Counted from the stretch's first letter, positions 1-9,343 are shown. The stretch is 64,000 nucleotides of DNA from Bacilli bacterium (GCA_017418945.1 JAFOMI010000040.1:32-64031); one strand, 5' to 3'. Notes: generated by a model not told the origin, from the sequence alone. A program made the numbers and translations.

Positions 1-25
1 TATGATAAAATAATATTGGAATTTG

Positions 26-51
26 AATTGGTCAGTTACAACTGACCAATT
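26..51. repeat. Perfect 10-bp inverted repeat with a 6-nt spacer (aattggtcag-ttacaa-ctgaccaatt)
   Basis: Read directly: 26-35 is the exact reverse complement of 42-51. No T-run follows, so it is more likely a protein-binding site or the stem of an upstream terminator than a classic intrinsic terminator. Confidence 0.45.
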
Positions 52-131
52 TAGAAATGAACAAATTAAAAATAATATGAAGTTAGAATATTATTTAGAT
101 TTTTTACTACAAATAAAAAGTTAATTTATAT

Positions 132-165
132 TTGTTAAAAATTATATATATTTAAATGGTATAAT
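132..165 (+). promoter_or_regulatory. Putative promoter of the 188-2133 operon (TTGTTA ... extended -10 TGgTATAAT)
   Basis: TGgTATAAT at 157-165 is a perfect extended -10, about 22 nt upstream of the ATG region. The -35-like TTGTTA at 132-137 has long spacing, so the -10 is the main evidence. Confidence 0.35.
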
Positions 166-187
166 TATAATTGGTTTAGGTGATGTT

Positions 188-1084
188 ATGTTAAGACAAT
201 TTAAAGGAATAAAATGGATAAATAATATTCCGAATTTTATTTTATATGATTATGAAAACAATATTATTGAATACAAAAAGGTTGAGGGAATTATAGATAT
301 AAAAAAAGAAGGTTTGAAAAAATGCAATGGGTATTATGATTTGGTTACACATAAATATGTTGTATGTCCAAATTTTAATAGTAGCGAATCAGATAATGTT
401 AAACAATGTGAAACATGTTCAAATATTACCGGATTTAATGAATGTCTTGGATGTGATGGTAAATATTGCAGAACTACTAATAGTATTGCAAAAGAATTTT
501 GTAATCAAAAACATGTTGTGTATATTGCTTTGTTTGGAAATAATAAATTTAAAGTTGGAACAGCAGCTGAATATAGAAAATATTCAAGAATACTTGAACA
601 AGGTGCTATAGCATCAATGTTTATTGCAGAAACACCAGATGGTAAACAGGCAAGATTTATAGAACATACAATATCAAAATTAGGATATGTACTTCAAGTG
701 AATTCATCGTTTAAATTGAAGAATTTAGTAATTGATAAGGATCGTATCGAAATTGAAAATATTTTAAAAAAACATTACAACAATATTATGAATGACATCC
801 CTGATGCTTTGAAAAAATTTTTAATTTCTCCCGAAATTAATTATTGTGAAAAAATTAATAAAATAAATAAAAGTATTTTTTCGGCAAATGATATGCAGTT
901 ATCTCTTCTTGAGGATAATATTGAAAACACATATGACATTAACTATTTGTTGCATTATGATAGTATATGTGGTAAAATAGCAAACGTTATTGGAACTTTT
1001 CTAGTAATAAAATCAAATAATGATTTTGTAATTTACGATACTAAAGAATTAGAGGGATGTATTGTAAAAATAAAATTAGGTTAG
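188..1084 (+). CDS. Cys-rich (zinc-ribbon-like) protein with a T5orf172/MUG113 GIY-YIG-like domain
   Basis: 298-aa ORF. Cysteine cluster CETC...CLGCDGKYC, followed by VYIALFGNNKFKVGTAAEYRKYSRILEQG and ARFIEHTISKLGY. This resembles the T5orf172 (GIY-YIG-like) pattern YKIGxT...RxxQL...AE..H..L. A 12-bp gap to the next ORF implies an operon. The domain call is from memory of the family consensus only. Confidence 0.5.
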   Translation: MLRQFKGIKWINNIPNFILYDYENNIIEYKKVEGIIDIKKEGLKKCNGYYDLVTHKYVVCPNFNSSESDNVKQCETCSNITGFNECLGCDGKYCRTTNSIAKEFCNQKHVVYIALFGNNKFKVGTAAEYRKYSRILEQGAIASMFIAETPDGKQARFIEHTISKLGYVLQVNSSFKLKNLVIDKDRIEIENILKKHYNNIMNDIPDALKKFLISPEINYCEKINKINKSIFSANDMQLSLLEDNIENTYDINYLLHYDSICGKIANVIGTFLVIKSNNDFVIYDTKELEGCIVKIKLG

Positions 1085-1095
1085 GGGAATTTTAA

Positions 1096-2133
1096 ATGTT
1101 TGATTATCACGGAATAGATTACAGTAGTATAGTTGATTTAGGTTATACAATGGCAACTTTTGAAAACCATTCGATGGGGCAATCACTTGAAAGATATATT
1201 GAAATGAAATTACAAGATATAATCTTTAGTGATTCAATATCAGAAATACGTGTTGTAGGTAATTATGATAGAACTAAAGGTATTTCTGTTAAAGAAAAAA
1301 ATGATAAAACTTTCAATTATAAGCGACCAACAGTTTTTGTGAATGGTGATGTTGCAACAATTAATTGTTATCCTGGTATGGATTATGTATATCATTATGC
1401 AAGTCTAGTAAAAACATATTTAGCTATATTAGGCATAAAAAAGAAAATTACAGTACAATTTCCTACAGTTCAACAAATTGAAAATCAATTAATGCGCTCT
1501 AATATAAATGAGATACCAAAATGTAAAACAGTAATATTAGGATATGTTCAAGGTTTTGAGTATTTGTCTAATACAGAAAATTGGCTTGGAACAGGAGATT
1601 TTTTGTGGAAGCAAATAACAGACGATAAAATATTAGTTGGTTGTAAGCATAGTTACTGGGGAGATATTGCTGGTTATATTGTTGCCGCATTAGCACGAAA
1701 AGGCGTAAAAAGAGTTATATATGTAGGAAAACTTGGAACATTAAACAAAAACTATGCACCAAATGAGACAATTGCTACAGGAAATAAAAGTATATTTATT
1801 GATGGTAGTTTTGTTGAATGGAATAATGTATTTGAAGATTTTAATTCTGATGCCATTAAGAATGGTATTCATTATACATTACCTAGTATAATTCAAGAAA
1901 CAAAAGAATGGGTTTTACAAAATAGAGAAGAAATTGCATTTGTTGATCCAGAAATTGGGCATATGGCTAAATCAGCAATGCAAAACGGAATTGATTATTC
2001 ATATTTACATATTATATCTGACAATTTATCAAAAAAATTCTCAGAAGACCTATCTAACGAAAGAAAAGAAGATGTCTTAATTAAAAGAAAAAAATTAATC
2101 AAGACAATAGGAAATTGCTTAATGGATATATAA
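1096..2133 (+). CDS. PNP/MTA-nucleosidase-fold (PNP_UDP_1-like) domain protein with an unassigned ~140-aa N-terminal region
   Basis: 345 aa. C-terminal half has ILVGCKHSYWGDIAGYIVAALARKGVKRVIYVGKLG, DPEIGHMAKSAMQNGI and LHIISDNL. These mirror the G-rich loop, the E..A motif and the terminal (I/V)SD motif of MTA/SAH nucleosidase and purine nucleoside phosphorylase fold proteins. The N-terminal ~140 aa was not recognised. Confidence 0.55.
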   Translation: MFDYHGIDYSSIVDLGYTMATFENHSMGQSLERYIEMKLQDIIFSDSISEIRVVGNYDRTKGISVKEKNDKTFNYKRPTVFVNGDVATINCYPGMDYVYHYASLVKTYLAILGIKKKITVQFPTVQQIENQLMRSNINEIPKCKTVILGYVQGFEYLSNTENWLGTGDFLWKQITDDKILVGCKHSYWGDIAGYIVAALARKGVKRVIYVGKLGTLNKNYAPNETIATGNKSIFIDGSFVEWNNVFEDFNSDAIKNGIHYTLPSIIQETKEWVLQNREEIAFVDPEIGHMAKSAMQNGIDYSYLHIISDNLSKKFSEDLSNERKEDVLIKRKKLIKTIGNCLMDI

Positions 2134-2136
2134 AAA

Positions 2137-2164
2137 CTGTGTATTTAAACACAGTTATTTTTTT
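2137..2164. terminator. Bidirectional intrinsic terminator between convergent genes
   Basis: Hairpin ctgtgt-atttaa-acacag (2137-2154) with an A-run before and T-run after. It sits between the + strand stop at 2133 and the - strand stop at 2145-2147. Confidence 0.5.
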
Positions 2165-2714
2165 CCATTACTAATTGAGGGTATCCTGCAAATATTTGTT
2201 TTCCAACTTTAATATTTAATTCTTCTATAGTATCCATAATATATTTCATACTATCATCCTCATTATCATATAAATTTGTTTTGAATTCTAATTCGATGAA
2301 ATCACCTAAATTTTCTATGGAATCAATTGATATAACAATATTATTATATTCGAATGAGTTTCTTTTTTTTTCAACAACTATTATTTGTTTGAAATCTAGT
2401 GCATCTAGCATTTCAATCATTCCGTTATAGTCATCTATTCCAATTTCAATTTCTTTACAAGAAATTTTATTATTACCATTATTATTACTCCAATTTTTGT
2501 AATTAATAGTTTTTTCTTCCTTTGTATCTCTTATTCTAAGCCATTCTGAAATAGGTTTTTTTTCAAGAAAATTCTCATGTGCTGGTGTATAATATATATC
2601 CTTTTGATAATTGTTTTCTTCAATTGTTTTACCTAATTCTTTTAATTTTGATATTGTTTCTTTTTTGTTATGTAAAGGAAATTTTGCTTCAATCTCAATT
2701 CTTTTTCTTTCCAT
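2145..2714 (-). CDS. CYTH-domain protein (class IV adenylyl cyclase CyaB / triphosphate-tunnel metalloenzyme family)
   Basis: N-terminal IEIEAKF matches the CYTH ExExK signature. The size (~189 aa from the internal start MERKRIEIEAKF, which has a GGAGG RBS; the ORF-track start at 2762 is less likely) is typical of CyaB-like proteins. Confidence 0.6.
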   Translation of the reverse strand: MERKRIEIEAKFPLHNKKETISKLKELGKTIEENNYQKDIYYTPAHENFLEKKPISEWLRIRDTKEEKTINYKNWSNNNGNNKISCKEIEIGIDDYNGMIEMLDALDFKQIIVVEKKRNSFEYNNIVISIDSIENLGDFIELEFKTNLYDNEDDSMKYIMDTIEELNIKVGKQIFAGYPQLVMEKNNCV

Positions 2715-2887
2715 ATCTTTACCTCCATATGAATTATATAATATTTTACTTTTTAAAGTCAATTAACTATAATCATAAATTCTAAAAATATATATTTGAA
2801 AAAAACTGTAATTAAAAAAATAAGATGTAATTAAATAGACTTGTATTTATTACTTCTAATTTCTTCAGTGCAGTTATTAAATTTAAC

Positions 2888-2975
2888 TTTTTTTGTTGCA
2901 ACTAACTAGATTTGTGGTAAATGTTCATACTGATATGTATTAATTCTTAATCGTTACTGAAAGTTGTAAATAATT
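2888..2975 (+). repeat. Copy A of a ~90-bp direct repeat carrying a sigma-A-type promoter plus conserved leader
   Basis: ttttttgTTGCAA-N16-TGgTAAATg followed by atactgatatgtattaattcttaatcgttactgaaagttgtaaataa. Aligns at about 85% identity with 3845-3943. It points into the 3' end of the convergent 2998-3822 gene. Confidence 0.6.
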
Positions 2976-2997
2976 ACTTGATTTATTTATAATATTA

Positions 2998-3822
2998 TTA
3001 TTGATATATTGCAATAGGAATTACAACAAATGCTGGACCCATTATTTTGTCTTTTATTTCTTTAGGATTGGACATATTTTTTTTAGATATCTGCCTTCTT
3101 TGTTCACGATTGATTGCCATTGATTTAACATCTTCAAATATTTCATCTAAGCATATACTATTTCCTTTTTCTATTTTCTTTTGAACTTTACATAGCATGT
3201 ATACTTGAGAAACAAAATTATCTTTAGATGTTTTTAAAAATGTTTTATCTATATTACCAATTAATGGATATTTTTTGTCTTCAAAGTTAAAAACACAGGA
3301 AAGTGAATTGTCATTTCTAGAATTAGATAACATTTGAAATCCATCTAAAGCCTCTTGTTCCTTTTCATCTATTATATTATTACCTAGAAAAGGTGCAAAT
3401 GCATCATATAGTTGTTTAAAACCATTTACAGCATTTGTTACTTCTTCTAATTTTGAAAAGCGTGGTGTTACTAAAACTTCAATAAAATCATCTCTATAAA
3501 TATTATCCCATATTTCTTGATTTATATTTTCATAATATTTTAATTCATCATTTTCTTTTAAATATTTAATTATTCTATCCAATTTACTTGCATCATTTAC
3601 TCTTGCATTTAATAATATTTTTTCTTCTTTTTGACTACCTAAGTTCCCTTCCATATTTGCTTTGGAAAATCCAACGCCTAGTTTTCCACCTTTATTAGTT
3701 GTTGAACTTTGTGTTATTTCTTGTTCTTCATAAATATATCCATCAATAATGGAAATATAATTGTCAAGTGCCTCAGTATCTGCATATAAAATTTTTCTAA
3801 GCATCTTTATCACCTCTGACAA
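2998..3822 (-). CDS. Hypothetical protein (274 aa) with a hydrophobic C-terminal tail (GPAFVVIPIAIYQ)
   Basis: Long ORF with an aggaGGTGAtaaagATG-type RBS upstream on the minus strand. No recognisable motif. Flanked by direct-repeat copies A and B. Confidence 0.6.
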   Translation of the reverse strand: MSEVIKMLRKILYADTEALDNYISIIDGYIYEEQEITQSSTTNKGGKLGVGFSKANMEGNLGSQKEEKILLNARVNDASKLDRIIKYLKENDELKYYENINQEIWDNIYRDDFIEVLVTPRFSKLEEVTNAVNGFKQLYDAFAPFLGNNIIDEKEQEALDGFQMLSNSRNDNSLSCVFNFEDKKYPLIGNIDKTFLKTSKDNFVSQVYMLCKVQKKIEKGNSICLDEIFEDVKSMAINREQRRQISKKNMSNPKEIKDKIMGPAFVVIPIAIYQ

Positions 3823-3844
3823 TATTCTATCATAAAATCAGCAC

Positions 3845-3952
3845 TTTTTTATTGCAATTAGTCAATTTTATGGTAAAATATTTATAGAGAATGATACTGA
3901 TATGTATTAATTCCTAATCGTGATGGAAAAGTTGTAAATAACTTAACCAATC
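3845..3952 (+). repeat. Copy B of the ~90-bp direct repeat (promoter plus conserved leader)
   Basis: ttttttaTTGCAA(3852-3857)-N16-TGgTAAAAT(3871-3879) followed by atgatactgatatgtattaattcctaatcgtgatggaaaagttgtaaataa. Same architecture as copy A. Confidence 0.6.
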
Positions 3953-3997
3953 GCTCCAGATTGATGAATAATACGAACTTATAGTTCGTTTTTTTTA
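3886..3997 (+). ncRNA. Candidate ~110-nt small RNA (promoter of repeat copy B to an intrinsic terminator)
   Basis: Near-consensus promoter (TTGCAA-16-TGgTAAAAT) with predicted TSS around 3886. Conserved leader, then hairpin acgaact-tat-agttcgt (3973-3989) plus T8 (3990-3997). No ORF with an RBS in between. The downstream CDS has its own RBS at 4041-4046. Confidence 0.4.
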
Positions 3998-4054
3998 TAC
4001 TTGAATAATAAGATTATGTTTGATAAAATATTTTTTATCAAGAGGGAAAACTAT

Positions 4055-4579
4055 ATGGGTTATTATAATAAAATGTTAGATTTATATTTTAAAGAAAAGA
4101 ATTATACAAAAGAAGAAATAGAAAAAATATTGGATGAAAATCCTTTTGATTCAAATTTTTCGCATTGGGAAAGTAATATATTATTTGAAGGTAAGTTATT
4201 TTCTAATTCTCTTAAGAAAAATGGAATTGTAGGTAGAGATGATTCTGTACAAGAATTAGTATTGTTTGATGAATTAGGTGTATGTAAGAATGTTACTAAT
4301 TATGTGGATTATATAAAGATAAATGATAATAATGTAAAAGGTACTAAAGTCGCTAAGAAAAAGGTAATATATAAAGGGCATTATGATGAAGAATATGAAT
4401 TTTTAAAATGCCTAGAATATAAAAGAATACCATTTGCTATTGGAATATGTACAAAAGATAAAGAATATTATAAAAGAATTTTAGAAATATATAAGTTTTA
4501 TTTATTAAAATTTAAAAATAGTAAAGTAATAGATGAAATAGATTATAATAGAGATATTTTAATATTTAAATCAAGATAA
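4055..4579 (+). CDS. Hypothetical protein (174 aa from the RBS-supported ATG)
   Basis: AGAGGG RBS 8 nt before the ATG at 4055 (MGYYNKMLDLYF...). The ORF track begins at a TTG at 4001 with no RBS. No recognisable domain. Confidence 0.55.
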   Translation: MGYYNKMLDLYFKEKNYTKEEIEKILDENPFDSNFSHWESNILFEGKLFSNSLKKNGIVGRDDSVQELVLFDELGVCKNVTNYVDYIKINDNNVKGTKVAKKKVIYKGHYDEEYEFLKCLEYKRIPFAIGICTKDKEYYKRILEIYKFYLLKFKNSKVIDEIDYNRDILIFKSR

Positions 4580-4601
4580 GGATTTTTTTTACATAAATGT
4601 A

Positions 4602-4629
4602 TTGATTAAAATAAAATTTATGGTAAAAT
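4602..4629 (+). promoter_or_regulatory. Promoter of the tRNA-Gly gene (TTGATT-N16-TGgTAAAAT)
   Basis: -35 TTGATT at 4602-4607 and extended -10 tggtaaaat at 4621-4629, about 12 nt before the tRNA 5' end. Shares the 17-nt string ttatggtaaaatattt with repeat copy B. Confidence 0.55.
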
Positions 4630-4640
4630 ATTTCTTGTAC

Positions 4641-4715
4641 GCAAGTGTAGTACAATGGTTAGTACGAGGCCTTGCCAAGGCTTAGACGAGAGTTCGATTC
4701 TCTTCACTTGCTCCA
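4641..4715 (+). tRNA. tRNA-Gly (anticodon GCC)
   Basis: Cloverleaf folded by hand: acceptor gcaagtg/cacttgc, D-arm gtac-aatggtta-gtac, anticodon stem aggcc/ggctt with loop ttGCCaa, T-arm gagag-ttcgatt-ctctt, discriminator T and encoded CCA. Confidence 0.85.
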
Positions 4716-4723
4716 AAAAAAGT

Positions 4724-4751
4724 TACTAGTCGGTTGACTAGTTTTTTTTTT
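4724..4751 (+). terminator. Intrinsic terminator after the tRNA (bidirectional-looking)
   Basis: Hairpin actagtc-ggtt-gactagt followed by T10, preceded by an A7 run. Confidence 0.7.
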
Positions 4752-4764
4752 GGAACAAGTTAAG

Positions 4765-4797
4765 CTTACTCTCGTCTAAGCTCTTTACTAACCATTG
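4765..4797 (-). repeat. Inverted, internally deleted partial copy of the tRNA-Gly gene
   Basis: The reverse complement caatggttagtaaagagcttagacgagagtaag matches the tRNA D-loop/D-stem (caatggttagta) and the variable/T-stem region (gcttagacgagag), with the anticodon arm missing. Confidence 0.55.
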
Positions 4798-4917
4798 AAA
4801 TTATTGCCTAAAAGTAATAATATCCTTTTTTTTGAACTTTTAATATAACTAATATTTATAATTGATTAAATATCAAAAAAAATATATAATAAAAATATAT
4901 AGTATAGAGGTGGTTAA

Positions 4918-5544
4918 ATGAAAAAGGTTAGAGAAGAGTATTTAAATGATAAAATTAATTATGATAAAAAGCAGTTAATTGGAATTGTTTCATTAATTAT
5001 TATATTTTCTGGTTTGTTTGGTTATGTTTATGAATTTATTTTTTATTATTTTAATGGTGGAATGAAAACTTTTTATATGCAAGGAGGTAATTTCTTACCA
5101 TGGATTAATATTTATGCGATAGGTGGTATTATTATTTTGATATTAACAAGTAAGTATAAAAAGAGTCCTTTTAATGTATTTTTTATTAGTTTAATATCAT
5201 CTCTTTTATTAGAATTTACATCTGGTTATATTTTAAATCATTTATTTGGATTAAGATTCTGGAATTATAATAATGAAATACTTAATTTTGGAAATGTAGG
5301 TGGATATATTTGTTTTAGAAGCGTTACTTTCTTTGGTATATCTGGTTTATTATTAATTTACTTCATTATTCCATTTTGTATTTATTTATCAAAAAAATTT
5401 AATCATAAAAAGTTTATGATATTATGCTTAATTATATTAAGTATAGTTTTATTAGATGAAGTTTATAATTTATTAATATGTAAGCTGTTTGATTTACCAT
5501 CTGCGATTAAAATATATAAAAGCTTAGGATTTAAATATGTATAA
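4918..5544 (+). CDS. Hypothetical polytopic membrane protein
   Basis: 208 aa with about 5-6 hydrophobic segments. RBS agaggtgg before the ATG. Confidence 0.6.
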   Translation: MKKVREEYLNDKINYDKKQLIGIVSLIIIFSGLFGYVYEFIFYYFNGGMKTFYMQGGNFLPWINIYAIGGIIILILTSKYKKSPFNVFFISLISSLLLEFTSGYILNHLFGLRFWNYNNEILNFGNVGGYICFRSVTFFGISGLLLIYFIIPFCIYLSKKFNHKKFMILCLIILSIVLLDEVYNLLICKLFDLPSAIKIYKSLGFKYV

Positions 5545-5557
5545 AAAAATAGTGAGA

Positions 5558-6907
5558 TTATTTTTTAATCTCACTATTTTTTAATGTTAAAGTCTTATTG
5601 TTATTTTTCATTTTTCCTTCATTATATAATTCTACTTCACTTACTAAGTCTAAAGGTTTATAATCTTTAATATTATTCTTTATTCTTTGAAGTTTTTCTT
5701 CTACATCACGAAGTGCGTAACTAAGACCTCTCATTTGTTTTTCTAGAGCAGGATTATTTGTATTTGAATTAAAGTATTTATCATCATGAAGAGCCCATGC
5801 ATCCATTACCATTGTTCTAACTATTACTTCCATTATAATAGGTTGAACATCATTTACCATAGGTATATTAAAGACTAAATTAATCTTATATCCTCTATAT
5901 CCAGATGGTTTTGGTTCAGCAAATCTATCACTTATACTTGTAATTTCTACATTATCCATTTTACCAATTTCTTGTTTAAATTGTTTTATAAAATCTAACG
6001 CAACTTTTTCATCTATACAAACTACTTTAAATCCAATAATATCGTGTATGTTTGTAATGATATCTTTAGCAGTACATGATAGTTTTCTCATTTTTAATTT
6101 TCTATTTATACTTGGTAAAGATTTTATTCTTGATGTTACATGAAGAATATCTCCTTTATTATCGTAATTTTTTATAAAAGTCTTTAAATCTTCATCAAAT
6201 TTATTATTTATGATTTGATAAAGGTGTCCTATTTTTTTATATTCTTCTTGTATTTTTTGTAATTCTTCATTACTTTGTTCTTCTTTATTAATACTTTCTT
6301 TTCTAATTAATTCATCTAATGCTTTATCATAGAAGAATAATTCATCACTAAGTTTTTTTAATTCATTTTTATCTTCTAAACTAGCATTACCTTTATAACT
6401 TAATTTATGTTCTTCTCTTGCGAATATATCCATGAATATAGTTCTTATTTGTATTTCTGCATAAACATAACTTATACCAGAAGATTTTTTTATTGGAACT
6501 TTTACAATAACGTGATATCCCATATATCCACTTTCTTTAGGGTCCTTGATATAATCTTTTATTTTTTCAATTTCAAAGTATTTAGTATTTTTTATTGTAT
6601 CAAGTACTTCTTTTGCATCAGTTAAGTTTAAACAAACTAATCTTACTCCAACAACATCACGTATATTATCGTAAGTTATATCTCTATTTTCTCTATTCAT
6701 TCTATCATTTATTTTATTTAAAAAACTATTTTCTTTTTTTATTCTTTCACTTTGATAGGCAACTTTATCTTTAATACCTTCGTTTTTTAATTTTTCCATT
6801 ATTTCTAAAAGATTATTTAAGGCATTAATATTATTTTCTTTTTCATATCTATAACGCACTAACTCTGATAATAGTTTTTCTTTTCTTTCATCAGTTAATG
6901 TAGCCAT
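5558..6907 (-). CDS. Tandem two-domain RelA/SpoT-family nucleotide pyrophosphokinase (duplicated small-alarmone-synthetase-like domains)
   Basis: Domain 1: DVVGVRLVC ... DYIKDPKESGYMGYH ... AEIQIRTIFMDIFAREEHKLSYK. Domain 2: DIIGFKVVC ... AEPKPSGYRGYK ... MEVIVRTMVMDAWALHDDKYF. Both match the RelQ/RelP synthetase motifs D..G.R, PK.SGY and (I/V)Q(I/V)RT..M..WA. Start taken at the RBS-supported MATLTDE (AGAGGG); the ORF track extends to 6991. Confidence 0.75.
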   Translation of the reverse strand: MATLTDERKEKLLSELVRYRYEKENNINALNNLLEIMEKLKNEGIKDKVAYQSERIKKENSFLNKINDRMNRENRDITYDNIRDVVGVRLVCLNLTDAKEVLDTIKNTKYFEIEKIKDYIKDPKESGYMGYHVIVKVPIKKSSGISYVYAEIQIRTIFMDIFAREEHKLSYKGNASLEDKNELKKLSDELFFYDKALDELIRKESINKEEQSNEELQKIQEEYKKIGHLYQIINNKFDEDLKTFIKNYDNKGDILHVTSRIKSLPSINRKLKMRKLSCTAKDIITNIHDIIGFKVVCIDEKVALDFIKQFKQEIGKMDNVEITSISDRFAEPKPSGYRGYKINLVFNIPMVNDVQPIIMEVIVRTMVMDAWALHDDKYFNSNTNNPALEKQMRGLSYALRDVEEKLQRIKNNIKDYKPLDLVSEVELYNEGKMKNNNKTLTLKNSEIKK

Positions 6908-6993
6908 TTTATCCCTCTTTTCGAAGTGAAGATAATATATCACTTTTTTGGTTAAAAAGCAAATTTTTAAAAAAAAGAAGTAAATTTTCATAT

Positions 6994-7767
6994 TTACTTC
7001 TTAATTATCTCTTTAACTTTTTGAACAGCACCTTGAGTATTTTTTTCTCCAAATGCTTGTAATACTTCGATTGGAATTGCAAATATTATTGTATTTGATT
7101 GATCTGATGATAAATCGTTTAAAGTAGCTAATGTTCTTAAATGTAATGCACCTGGTGAATTACTAAGTACATTAGCAGCTTTAGCTAAATTATCTGCAGC
7201 TTCTTTTTCACCTTTAGATTTAGTAATAACTGCTTCTTTTTCTCTTTCAGCTTCTGCAACTTTTGCAATAACTCTTTGCATTTCTTCTGGTAATTTAACA
7301 TCTTTTAATTCAACATTTTCAACTTTAATTCCCCAAGGATCAGTTGCTTCATCAATTACTTTACATATTTCAGTTGATATTTTATCTCTTTCTGATAATA
7401 ATTCATCTAGTGAAACAGCACCAACTGCATTTCTCATTGTAGTTTGTGCAAGTTGTCCAACAGCATATTGATATCTTTCAACAGCAAGAATTGCTTTAGA
7501 TGCATCAAATACTTTATAGTAAATAACTGCATTAATTCTAATAGATACATTATCTTTAGTAATTGCATCTTGTTCAGGAACATCAACTGCTTTTGTTCTT
7601 ATATCAACTTTTTTGTATGATTCTATGATAGGTAATACTAAATTCCAACCTGGTTTCATAATTCTTTTGAATTTACCAAATCTAAATTTAATACCTCTTT
7701 CATATTCAGATACTTGTCTTATTGATATAAGTATAATAAATATAATAATTCCTATAATAATTTTCAT
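6994..7767 (-). CDS. SPFH/band-7 (stomatin/prohibitin-like) membrane protein
   Basis: N-terminal TM helix, then the SPFH core (IRTKAVDVPEQDAITKDNVSIRINAVIYYKV ... WGIKVENVELKDVKLPEEMQ) and an A/E-rich coiled-coil tail. Confidence 0.85.
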   Translation of the reverse strand: MKIIIGIIIFIILISIRQVSEYERGIKFRFGKFKRIMKPGWNLVLPIIESYKKVDIRTKAVDVPEQDAITKDNVSIRINAVIYYKVFDASKAILAVERYQYAVGQLAQTTMRNAVGAVSLDELLSERDKISTEICKVIDEATDPWGIKVENVELKDVKLPEEMQRVIAKVAEAEREKEAVITKSKGEKEAADNLAKAANVLSNSPGALHLRTLATLNDLSSDQSNTIIFAIPIEVLQAFGEKNTQGAVQKVKEIIKK

Positions 7768-7832
7768 ATAATTTCCTCCCTAATATTATTATATTTTTTT
7801 TAAAATAAAAAATCAATAATACGTGTTGAAAA

Positions 7833-8405
7833 ATGAAAAATTATAATATATACTTTTTTATAGAAGGTGTAGTTGATATGTTTAAATTCGATTTTATAAA
7901 CTTAAAATATATATTCATTTCTATAATATCGTTATTAATAATATTTATAGTTATGATGATTTCTTGGTATAAACTTTTTAAAAAAGCTGGTAAAAAAGGT
8001 TATATAGCATTTATTCCTTTTTATAATATTTGGACATTATTTGAAATAGGTAATGTTAAGGGATTTTATTCTTTATTAATATTAATTCCATTATTAGGAT
8101 TATTAATATTTATTATACTTTATTATAAAGCATTAGTAGAAATAGTAAGAAGATTAGATAAGAATAAAGTTCTTGCAATTTTATGTATATTTTTTCCTAT
8201 ATTTATTTATCCATATTTAGGATTTTCTTCATCAATTTATGAGGTTAAACCTGTTGTTAAGGAAACTAGTATTTTAGATATTGATTTAGAAGGTGTTATT
8301 GAAGATAAAGAATTTAATTATGGTTATGAAAAAGAAGATACTGAGGTAATGAAACCTATTAAGAAAAAAACAGGTAATAAAAAGAAAACAACTAAAAAGA
8401 AATAA
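7833..8405 (+). CDS. Hypothetical membrane protein with a K-rich C-terminal tail
   Basis: Three to four hydrophobic segments. The C-terminus is GNKKKTTKKK. Confidence 0.6.
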   Translation: MKNYNIYFFIEGVVDMFKFDFINLKYIFISIISLLIIFIVMMISWYKLFKKAGKKGYIAFIPFYNIWTLFEIGNVKGFYSLLILIPLLGLLIFIILYYKALVEIVRRLDKNKVLAILCIFFPIFIYPYLGFSSSIYEVKPVVKETSILDIDLEGVIEDKEFNYGYEKEDTEVMKPIKKKTGNKKKTTKKK

Positions 8406-8408
8406 TTA

Positions 8409-8969
8409 TTATTTCTTTTTTTTGTTTTCATACATTTCATATAATCTTTTAAATCTTTCAAAGTGTATTATTTCTCTTTGTCTTAAAAAAGATAGGGGAG
8501 ATAGTATATCTTTATCATCTGTTAAATCCATTAGATTTTCATAAGTTGCTCTTGCTTTTTGTTCTGCTGCCATATCTTCCATAATATCTGCAATAGGATC
8601 TCCAGTTACTGCAAAGTAAGCTGCATTAAAAGGTATTCCATCAGCATTCATAGGATATACTGCATTTTTATGTTCTGTATACCAAGATGCTAATCCTTCT
8701 TTTTCTAGTTCCTTAACACTAGCTCCTTCTAGTAATTGATAAACCATGGCACTTATTATTTCCATATGTGCAAATTCTTCGGTAGCGATATCTGTTAATT
8801 CACTTTTTCCATAATCATCAGGCATAGTATATCTTTGATTTAAATATCTAAGTGCAGCCCCAAGTTCTCCATTAGGTCCCCCTGTTTGAGTAATAATATA
8901 TTTTGCCATCTTTACATTTTTGTTTTTTATATTTACAGGAAACTGTAACTTTTTTTCATATTTCCACAT
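8409..8969 (-). CDS. cotJC: Spore coat protein CotJC (manganese-catalase family)
   Basis: MWKYEKKLQFPV...GGPNGELGAALRYLNQRYTMPD...IADIMEDMAAEQKARATY is nearly collinear with Bacillus CotJC. Start set at MWKYEKK (AAAGGA RBS); the ORF track extends 24 nt further and would overlap cotJB. Confidence 0.85.
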   Translation of the reverse strand: MWKYEKKLQFPVNIKNKNVKMAKYIITQTGGPNGELGAALRYLNQRYTMPDDYGKSELTDIATEEFAHMEIISAMVYQLLEGASVKELEKEGLASWYTEHKNAVYPMNADGIPFNAAYFAVTGDPIADIMEDMAAEQKARATYENLMDLTDDKDILSPLSFLRQREIIHFERFKRLYEMYENKKKK

Positions 8970-8971
8970 AG

Positions 8972-9343
8972 TTAAATCCTTTCCCAAGGCCAAGGTGATT
9001 TTACCCAGTCCCAGTTATAACTTTCATTTATATCTAAAGTAATTTTTCCATATCTAGATTCATATTCTTTTTGTAATCTATTTTCTTCTTCCTTATATTG
9101 ATTATATAATCCAATTGCTTGAAGATCATCTGGATATAAATCTAAATATAGATTCATTTCATGCGCTGCGAAACAATATTTCATTATTTCAATAAGTAGT
9201 TCTTCTTTTGGATTATTACTACTTACATTTGCAATATATTTATATGGAGAAAATAAGTTATCAAACATATTACCTCTATTAAATCCTTCACTAACACTTA
9301 CTAGTTTATTATTAGTTGATAGATTATCATACATTTTTATCAT
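8972..9343 (-). CDS. cotJB: Spore coat protein CotJB-like (start uncertain; longer than typical CotJB)
   Basis: AHEMNLYLDLYPDD...YNQY...YESRYGKITL matches the CotJB (F/Y)LDTHP(D/H)D ... YGPL pattern. Adjacent to and co-oriented with cotJC. The 123-aa ORF may carry an N-terminal extension, or the true start may be the internal MFDNLFS. Confidence 0.7.
   Translation of the reverse strand: MIKMYDNLSTNNKLVSVSEGFNRGNMFDNLFSPYKYIANVSSNNPKEELLIEIMKYCFAAHEMNLYLDLYPDDLQAIGLYNQYKEEENRLQKEYESRYGKITLDINESYNWDWVKSPWPWERI

Follow-up and report, generated by a model that had tools for sequence, protein, structure and literature searches.

In a 64,000-nucleotide (nt) stretch of DNA from a Bacilli bacterium (GCA_017418945.1 JAFOMI010000040.1:32-64031; the window), a gene for tRNA-Gly(GCC) stands between the remains of a mobile element on its left and an inverted, incomplete copy of itself on its right. 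We consider it probable (roughly 0.6) that the DNA left of the tRNA gene is a decayed island, that the CCA end of the gene is an attachment site for other elements (attB) that is empty in this strain, and that the inverted copy is the re-templated arm of a quasi-palindrome, now left behind as an orphan relic. The copy is an old mirror image, probably without function. The window has a G+C content of 23.8%, and it derives from a lineage of uncultured low-G+C Bacilli; among organisms with a name, 'Clostridium sp. CAG:594' and 'Tenericutes UMGS957' stand closest to it.

The tRNA-Gly gene (positions 4641-4715, plus strand, CCA encoded; Rfam RF00005, 66.7 bits) is the sole tRNA gene that ARAGORN calls in the window. 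It is followed at 4725-4751 by an intrinsic terminator that was scored as such on both strands and forms the centre of a palindrome; its hairpin (ACTAGTC-GGTT-GACTAGT, 4725-4742) is followed by T10 on the plus strand and by AACTTTTTTT on the minus strand, the T-run reaches 4751, and the terminator is kept in relatives. Among the loci and contigs compared (designated by L numbers), pair 4:69 of the tRNA acceptor stem (window 4644/4709) varies as a compensatory series, with A-T in the window and L017, G.T in L021, L035, L038 and L042, and G-C in L028, L030, L032, L033 and L034.

Looking up contigs that encode the CmpB-like protein of the right-hand neighbouring gene retrieved, among others, L002, which is 100% identical to positions 1-9000 of the window and reaches 3.1 kilobases (kb) further left. 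It carries a tRNA-Cys(GCA) gene at its positions 1513-1586, i.e., 1.6 kb left of the window, and the spacing between this gene and tRNA-Gly amounts to 6,199 nt, of which the right-hand 4,640 nt (positions 1-4640) fall in the window. In L021, a relative with 96% identity in the CmpB-like protein, tRNA-Cys (its 3' end), the sequence TGTGAT and tRNA-Gly directly follow one another, and the same terminator, inverted fragment and CmpB gene stand to the right of tRNA-Gly as in the window. A pattern scan of metagenomes, together with later look-ups, added seven farther loci (L028, L030, L032, L033, L034, L038 and L041) in which the two tRNA genes lie 3-8 nt apart under one promoter, with conserved NUDIX and then bPH_3 genes upstream. 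Since tRNA-Cys and tRNA-Gly are adjacent in these relatives, the 6,199 nt between them in the window strain are an insertion, a 6.2-kb island that is carried by L001, L002 and L005. A scan of genome contigs with the CmpB protein returned only relatives of 55-59% identity without shared gene order or a nearby tRNA gene, and a 64% relative (P0007) likewise lacked the shared gene order.

A preliminary description of this DNA, made from the window itself, had proposed an accessory island to the left of tRNA-Gly and had advised a comparison with close relatives to find its empty site. L021 and the seven farther loci are such empty sites, and the relatives do not share an identical gene content at this tRNA, the island being absent from L021. 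The boundary had been sought in tRNA-Gly; the clear junction proved to lie at the CCA of tRNA-Cys, and the island merely abuts the 5' end of tRNA-Gly. Comparison of L002 with L021 shows this left junction to be sharp, directly after the tRNA-Cys CCA. The right junction falls within about 4626-4640, looks degenerate and is unplaceable to a single base. No repeat of the CTCCA core is present there (TATTTCTTGTAC|GCAAGTG), and of 17 positions only about 10 agree with the empty site CCTCCATGTGATGCAGG.

The CCA end of tRNA-Gly itself is occupied in other strains. Contig L001 is 99.97% identical to the window and carries a 5,906-nt insertion exactly between the tRNA-Gly CCA and the terminator, with GCTCCA at either junction. 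The L001 element encodes a 90-amino-acid protein, a 642-amino-acid large serine recombinase (LSR), a Mob_Pre relaxase that adjoins the LSR, and a YcxB-like protein. The LSR possesses a Resolvase domain (PF00239; expect value E = 4e-33), a Recombinase domain (PF07508, E = 5e-18) and a Zn ribbon (PF13408, E = 5e-4), and the reconstructed attachment site of the element (attP) reads ..ACTATCGCTCCATTGAGGAATC... Three more element ends abut GCTCCA at the same base. The end found in L004 and L008 has a T-arm-like hairpin (GGTTG-TTCGATTT-CAACC) and then ATAAGG|GCTCCA, that of L006 reads ..GTTATC|GCTCCA, and that of L023, a 90% relative, reads ..ACAATT|GCTCCA. The right ends of L004 and L006 were checked against the L001 element and are unrelated to it. 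Contigs L007, L009 and L010 break precisely at 4710; assembly breaks are the usual behaviour of assemblers at a polymorphic junction. The right end of the element in L004 (470-510) and L008 (110-150) mimics the tRNA 3' end, the hairpin being followed by ATAAGGGCTCCA, and it has only TTCGATT and GCTCCA in common with tRNA-Gly.

The same recombinase module recurs in phages. IMG/VR phage contigs whose LSRs are 63-79% identical to that of L001 show the same order of junction, hairpin, 90-amino-acid gene and LSR gene, and their junction always reads NCCA and then ..ATCTGTTCGAAC; in four IMG/VR loci with related LSRs, no tRNA gene is present within 3 kb. Among the plasmid recombinases of PLSDB, identity to the L001 LSR is at most 31.5%. 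As the junctions of phages and of mobilizable elements both lie at NCCA, this LSR family appears to work at tRNA-like CCA ends. Taken from the sequences compared, these junctions support the view that the CCA/terminator junction of tRNA-Gly is an attB (core GCTCCA, 4710-4715, plus strand, as defined by the element junctions in other strains) that is unoccupied in the window and would be used by related LSR elements and by other elements in the same population. The suggestion in the preliminary description that this tRNA gene is an integration hotspot is thus borne out by four element ends at GCTCCA. It had named the right gene and the wrong side, the elements inserting to the right of tRNA-Gly, between CCA and terminator, at a site that is empty in the window.

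The island on the left is related to the L001 element. Its left end, TCCA|TTGGGAAATCTGTTCGAAC, resembles the element end TCCA|TTGAGGAATCTGCTCGGAAC, both carry a hairpin and a T-run just inside the left end, and over its first 1.4 kb the island shares 70-75% identity with the L001 element at the left end of the latter; past 1.4 kb, only a 44-nt match is common to the two. A 91-amino-acid gene of the island is 52% identical to the 90-amino-acid gene of L001, and at 392-934 nt left of the window lies a 180-amino-acid open reading frame (ORF) with an N-terminal Resolvase domain. The encoded protein matches residues 9-184 of the L001 LSR with 69% identity, after which a stop codon and broken frames follow. 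The shared left end, the 91-amino-acid gene and the recombinase remnant therefore mark the island as a decayed element related to LSR-type integrative mobilizable elements. The missing integrase had been surmised to lie outside the window or to be degraded, and this truncated serine recombinase pseudogene is both. We envisage an ancestral locus that would have been a tRNA-Cys-tRNA-Gly operon with a single promoter and a single terminator. An LSR-type integrative element would have inserted right after the tRNA-Cys CCA and then decayed, leaving a recombinase cut to 180 amino acids, no relaxase and a degenerate right junction. Judging from its sequence, island DNA would now supply a terminator to tRNA-Cys and a promoter to tRNA-Gly, so that signals of the island may replace the lost ones of the operon. 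A promoter-like site in island DNA at 4602-4629 (plus strand, TTGATT-N16-TGgTAAAAT, from promoter prediction) would now serve tRNA-Gly, a gene that in relatives shares a transcript with tRNA-Cys.

To the right of the terminator, at 4751-4808 on the minus strand, stands an inverted, internally deleted tRNA-Gly-like sequence (a pseudo-tRNA), which is defined by its alignment to tRNA-Gly and by orthologous pieces in seven lineages. Two blocks are exact: GCTTAGACGAGAGT at 4680-4693 (plus strand) recurs as an inverted copy at 4768-4781 (minus strand; chance expectation 0.01), and CAATGGTTAGTA at 4653-4664 (plus strand) recurs at 4786-4797 (minus strand; chance expectation 0.00). The reverse complement of 4751-4808 covers the entire tRNA-Gly from GCAA to TCCA with three internal deletions; one affects the acceptor and positions 8-9, one takes 12-15 nt out of the anticodon arm, and one removes most of the T-loop. 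Fragment and tRNA gene are mirror images around the loop of the terminator, with a register kept to within 1 nt; they lie 36 nt apart with the terminator alone in between, and Rfam models read 4681-4780 as a single long hairpin. The RNA of 4641-4810 is predicted to fold with -72.3 kcal/mol (z = -9.5), its downstream arm pairing with the tRNA. ARAGORN called no minus-strand tRNA in the window, nor did Rfam at positions 1-8000 (E <= 1), and a second functional tRNA was rejected as a reading of the fragment for want of a cloverleaf.

The preliminary description had reported this fragment as a 33-nt copy (4765-4797) from which the anticodon arm is precisely missing. The inverted copy is real, and the 33-mer occurs once within the window; its extent had been drawn too short, and the deletion is not precise, as the 14-mer keeps GCTT, four bases of the 3' strand of the anticodon stem, the loss covering about C25-C36. 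The same text had reckoned with a chance match in AT-rich DNA that would not be conserved elsewhere. The only point that favours chance is the 23.8% G+C content of the window. The exact 14-mer and 12-mer are collinear and in register, where about 0.01 would be expected; local alignment of the reverse complement to tRNA-Gly scores 57.5 against a maximum of 33 among 1000 shuffles; and the fragment is conserved in relatives. We consequently regard a fortuitous similarity as so improbable that it can be neglected.

The fragment is present with one indel in L017 and L021 and with few substitutions in L023. Its pattern has six matches in metagenomes, two of which (L029 and L031) are due to chance, and no match in viral contigs. 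In L033, an inverted tRNA-Gly-like piece occupies the same place and keeps the anticodon loop, the variable loop and the whole T-arm (alignment score 48.5 against a shuffle maximum of 34); it is located at the 3' terminus of a convergent gene for a nuclease-like protein of 252 amino acids and partly overlaps that gene. This protein has 574 homologues at E <= 1e-5, of which 35 were aligned; these share 65-83% identity with P0121, which represents the L033 protein. It belongs to no Pfam family and found no match in NCBIfam or in a sequence and profile search of PDB. A Foldseek search with its structural model (predicted local distance difference test score, pLDDT, 69) gave HinP1I (2fkc_A) as the best hit (E = 4e-5, template modelling score, TM, 0.42), and we therefore refer to the gene as encoding a putative HinP1I-like nuclease. 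No methyltransferase was called beside it in any fetched locus. The gene is widespread in uncultured low-G+C Bacilli, as its 574 homologues show, and stands tail-to-tail with tRNA-Gly wherever it was fetched; in L033 (2803-3561) and L034 (4001-4759), it is more diverged (83% nucleotide identity) than its flanks (91-100%).

All seven lineages (L033/L034, L035, L038, L041, L042, L044 and the clade of the window) carry a tRNA-Gly-like piece. The order in every nuclease locus fetched is nuclease gene, piece, hairpin and the convergent real tRNA-Gly, and on the side away from tRNA-Gly (the far side), the nuclease has different neighbours in different loci. In the nuclease-less loci L028, L030 and L032, the piece is also absent. 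In the 90% relatives L022 and L023, a remnant of the nuclease gene survives between the piece and the CmpB promoter, with an internal deletion that leaves residues 9-25 and 219-252 (E = 3e-7 to 2e-5), and no such remnant was found in the window. With a remnant in L022 and L023 and none in the window, the window fragment thus represents the orphaned 3' flank of a deleted gene. Contigs L022 (400-420) and L023 (100-125) code for one and the same CmpB protein. At precisely the outer (5') boundary of the fragment, the nuclease remnant of L022 is joined to a truncated ORF with a Fic domain, which stands in place of fragment, terminator and tRNA, so that a second breakpoint lies at the edge of the pseudo-tRNA.

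Because relatives whose nucleases are 65-83% identical to the L033 copy have the piece, the fragment is older than the elements at tRNA-Gly. The idea that it is a relic of an attachment site, which the preliminary description had entertained, fails for these elements: the fragment is inverted, unchanged to the right of every insertion and older than they are. Its inclusion in the attB of the LSR was also considered and rejected, the crossover core being 36-93 nt away and the fragment untouched in every right-hand attachment site (attR).

A different recombination event might have left the piece as a scar. An ancient nuclease-bearing element would have integrated at the anticodon loop of a tRNA-Gly gene and left a partial 3' copy, which an inversion or other rearrangement then brought tail-to-tail with the tRNA-Gly gene that survives. 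In L033, L034, L038 and L044, the piece does start with the anticodon loop (CTTGCCAAGG) directly behind the conserved ORF end and extends in the 3' direction of the tRNA, which is the shape of the identity block of an anticodon-loop integrase; the integrase classes that Williams is said to have distinguished reportedly include one with this target. The locus is, moreover, a proven integration hotspot, and the breakpoint of L022 falls at the outer end of the piece. The orientation, however, is inverted rather than direct, no tyrosine integrase or second boundary was seen in any locus, and the copy in the window contains D-arm sequence, which a copy of the 3' part would not be expected to have. 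A scar would also leave the lineage-specific tracking of the tRNA described below unexplained, so that re-templating would still be needed. We consider this origin distinctly unlikely.

The T-arm and acceptor sequences of tRNA-Gly vary by lineage, and each piece resembles its own neighbour. The piece of L042 (GAGATGGCAGTTCGATTCTGCTCACTTTCT) matches its own tRNA (GAGACGGCAGTTCGATTCTGCTCACTTGCT) at 28 of 30 nt, and that of L044 (ATGTGGGGGGATGATTCCC..GTTTGCTCC) stands beside a tRNA reading ATGTGGGGGTCCGATTCCCCTTGTTCGCTCC. When each piece was scored against the last 33 nt of the tRNA of every lineage, the scores for own-lineage pairs summed to 104, compared with a permutation mean of 73 and a best derangement of 90. 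A sum of 104 is attained by only 5 of 5040 permutations, among them the exchange of the L033 and window tRNAs, which are nearly identical. The pieces have GATG in common where their own tRNAs have GACG or GATAC, and they are therefore homologous and only partly homogenised. The tRNA segment that is retained differs from lineage to lineage, and the D-arm block is found in the window lineage only. Between L033 and L034, whose tRNAs are 100% identical, the non-coding part of the piece matches at 17 of 22 positions (77%), with a 13-nt indel just downstream, compared with 76% in intergenic DNA and 67% at third codon positions; the piece thus appears to diverge at about the intergenic, neutral rate.

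Template switching is described as a process that creates and maintains hairpin stems (PMC8794818). In the reading that we favour, the fragment is the arm of an old quasi-palindrome, and replication template switching or short-tract gene conversion across the hairpin would repeatedly copy tRNA sequence into it. Selection on the tRNA arm would let changes survive in the direction from tRNA to copy alone, so that the copy follows its neighbour and otherwise decays. In the window lineage, the copy would have grown into the D-arm while most of the anticodon stem-loop was skipped; the exact 12- and 14-nt tracts that flank the missing anticodon stem-loop would fit a recent copying event that skipped this hairpin. 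The nuclease gene would then have been deleted in the window lineage, with the fragment left as an orphan relic.

The same co-variation with the tRNA could instead be compensatory evolution of a functional cis-element under selection. Such an element might act as a mimic of a tRNA half in the 3' untranslated region of the nuclease mRNA, or its complement in read-through tRNA transcripts might pair with the 3' half of tRNA-Gly. In both cases it would lengthen the terminator, which works in both directions, into a long duplex by which transcription converging there would be blocked or processed. Selection would account for a piece that is present in all seven nuclease lineages despite nuclease identities of 65-83% and differing tRNA-Gly stems, that tracks the tRNA of its own lineage, and whose nuclease gene stays paired with tRNA-Gly while the far-side genes change; the strongly negative folding energy given above, with the tRNA paired to the downstream arm, is likewise in its favour. 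The part that is retained varies, however, and only the variable loop and the 5' strand of the T-stem are common to all pieces; in L035 and L044, whose sequences were read, the T-arm pairing inside the piece is broken. The divergence between L033 and L034 is near neutral, the long duplex would require read-through of a canonical terminator with hairpin and T10, the partner gene has been lost in the window, and no minus-strand promoter-like site is predicted from the fragment to position 5000, the limit of the scanned region. We deem a selected element possible but on balance unlikely. In a more specific form of this view, the half-copy would be a co-evolving cis-element of a unit of nuclease gene and tRNA-Gly that is conserved in uncultured low-G+C gut Bacilli; it would couple expression or processing of the nuclease mRNA and of tRNA-Gly, and the window would have kept it after losing the gene. 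This form strikes us as quite doubtful.

Several observations weigh against our own reading of the locus as a decayed island, an empty attB and a re-templated arm. All comparisons come from metagenome contigs, several of them short. The left junction has been seen for only one of the four elements at tRNA-Gly, that of L001. No core repeat is present at the right end of the island, and an origin by a single LSR integration would be indicated for the left 1.4 kb only. The pieces of L035 and L038, two of the seven, fit the tRNA of another lineage better than their own, and the estimate of a neutral rate comes from 22 nt in one pair of loci. The presence of the piece in seven nuclease lineages and its absence where the gene is lacking would fit a functional 3' end of the gene equally well. 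Finally, we infer the re-templating mechanism from the pattern alone.

The part of the island that lies in the window carries five genes in addition to repeats and promoter-like sites. A DUF2797 family gene (188-1084, plus strand, 298 amino acids; Pfam PF10977, E = 5e-13) is followed by a gene of no recognisable family (1096-2133, plus strand), whose 345-amino-acid product has no match in Pfam, NCBIfam, PADLOC, PHROGs or PDB sequences. On the minus strand are a CYTH-domain gene (2145-2762; PF01928, E = 9e-25), whose CyaB-like product (class IV adenylate cyclase family) scores 102.5 bits against TIGR00318 cyaB (cut-off 57.95), and a DUF6414 family gene (2998-3822; PF19952, E = 5e-39, full-length domain), an ORF of 274 amino acids in the window for which the contigs call a 268-amino-acid product. 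The last gene, again of no recognisable family, encodes 174 amino acids (4055-4579, plus strand; 192 amino acids if read from the TTG at 4001). Searches of PADLOC, PHROGs, NCBIfam and PDB sequences with the cargo proteins add nothing past DUF2797, CYTH/CyaB and DUF6414. DUF6414 is a domain of DolA of the Dodola defence system (bioRxiv 10.1101/2024.10.26.620412). The island shares this gene with Dodola but has no ClpB-like DolB among its neighbours, and no PADLOC model was matched; the solitary DUF6414 gene was therefore rejected as a Dodola system.

None of the DUF2797, 345-amino-acid, CYTH and DUF6414 genes was found in the loci of relatives that were examined. The 174-amino-acid gene is also present in the 96% relatives L017-L020, with a different gene on its left. 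There, the 3' end of this other gene (L017 2-262), whose tail looks RhuM-like by eye only, replaces the DUF6414 gene and repeat copy 2 (see below) and uses the same terminator hairpin. This gene replacement indicates that the island is mosaic between strains. Relatives have a CYTH-domain gene of their own (L034 7834-8376) at a conserved position beside the glutamyl-tRNA synthetase gene, which is too distant from that of the island to be detected at E <= 1e-6.

Two copies of a direct repeat of about 85 nt, both on the plus strand, flank the DUF6414 gene and are 89.6% identical over 48 nt. Copy 1 (2894-2975) consists of a promoter-like TTGCAA-N17-TGGTAAAT plus a leader; it is convergent with the 3' end of the DUF6414 gene and would read antisense into that end. 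Copy 2 (3850-3941) contains TTGCAA-N16-TGgTAAAAT and is followed by a terminator-like hairpin at 3973-3989. Together, copy 2 and the hairpin may possibly constitute a small RNA of 110 nt or the leader of the 174-amino-acid gene (fold z = -2.7). The promoter-like site at 4602-4629 has a 20-mer in common with 3864-3883 (repeat family D13).

The right-hand neighbour of the fragment is the gene for the CmpB-like putative ABC-transporter permease (PF06541, 4918-5544). It is followed on the minus strand (5558-6991) by a gene for a protein of 449-477 amino acids that contains two stretches of the RelA/SpoT nucleotidyltransferase type and matches 2CompARG weakly. This protein matches the PADLOC candidate defence model PDC-S33 (E = 1e-33), and its gene adjoins the CmpB gene in the 90-96% relatives too, an arrangement that is thus conserved.

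Among site-specific recombinases, tyrosine integrases classically target tRNA genes, and islands made by them carry a partial direct repeat of the tRNA (attL/attR). The locus described here resembles such tRNA islands in having a tRNA gene as its landmark, a strain-variable presence, and a recombinase gene at the tRNA-proximal junction. It differs in that the recombinase is a serine enzyme acting on a 6-nt core without a long tRNA repeat, and in that the partial tRNA copy is inverted, lies 36 nt away with no island in between, and predates the elements. Integrative mobilizable elements and mobilizable transposons that combine an LSR with a Mob/Pre (MOBV) relaxase, such as the clostridial Tn4451/Tn4453 family, are probably close counterparts of the elements seen here. 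The 5.9-kb element of L001 shares with these the combination of LSR and Mob_Pre and short identical core ends, and the window island starts with a 70-75% identical copy of the left end of that element. Unlike Tn4451/Tn4453-type elements, the L001 element targets the CCA end of a tRNA gene at its terminator and has an LSR that is at most 31.5% identical to those in PLSDB, and its counterpart in the window is a defective copy with unrelated cargo. For the correction of one arm by the other, what is said to be Ripley's quasi-palindrome model offers a parallel. As in quasi-palindrome correction (PMC8794818), an imperfect inverted repeat surrounds a hairpin and one arm follows the other; here, however, one arm is a tRNA gene and the other a non-coding stretch or 3' flank, and the arrangement persists clade-wide.

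For the biology of these Bacilli, the locus points to serine recombinases of one family, found in phages as well as in small mobilizable elements, whose attachment sites lie at the CCA ends of tRNA genes. It would also be an example of an element that splits a tRNA operon and leaves behind a fixed cargo island with its own terminator and promoter. The inverted fragment offers a natural case of a non-coding inverted copy that tracks a neighbouring tRNA gene across a clade. If selection on the copy were to explain this tracking, the fragment would represent a new kind of tRNA-linked element; if the copy is maintained without selection, template switching would mimic compensatory evolution, and this would be a warning for the discovery of RNAs on the basis of covariation.

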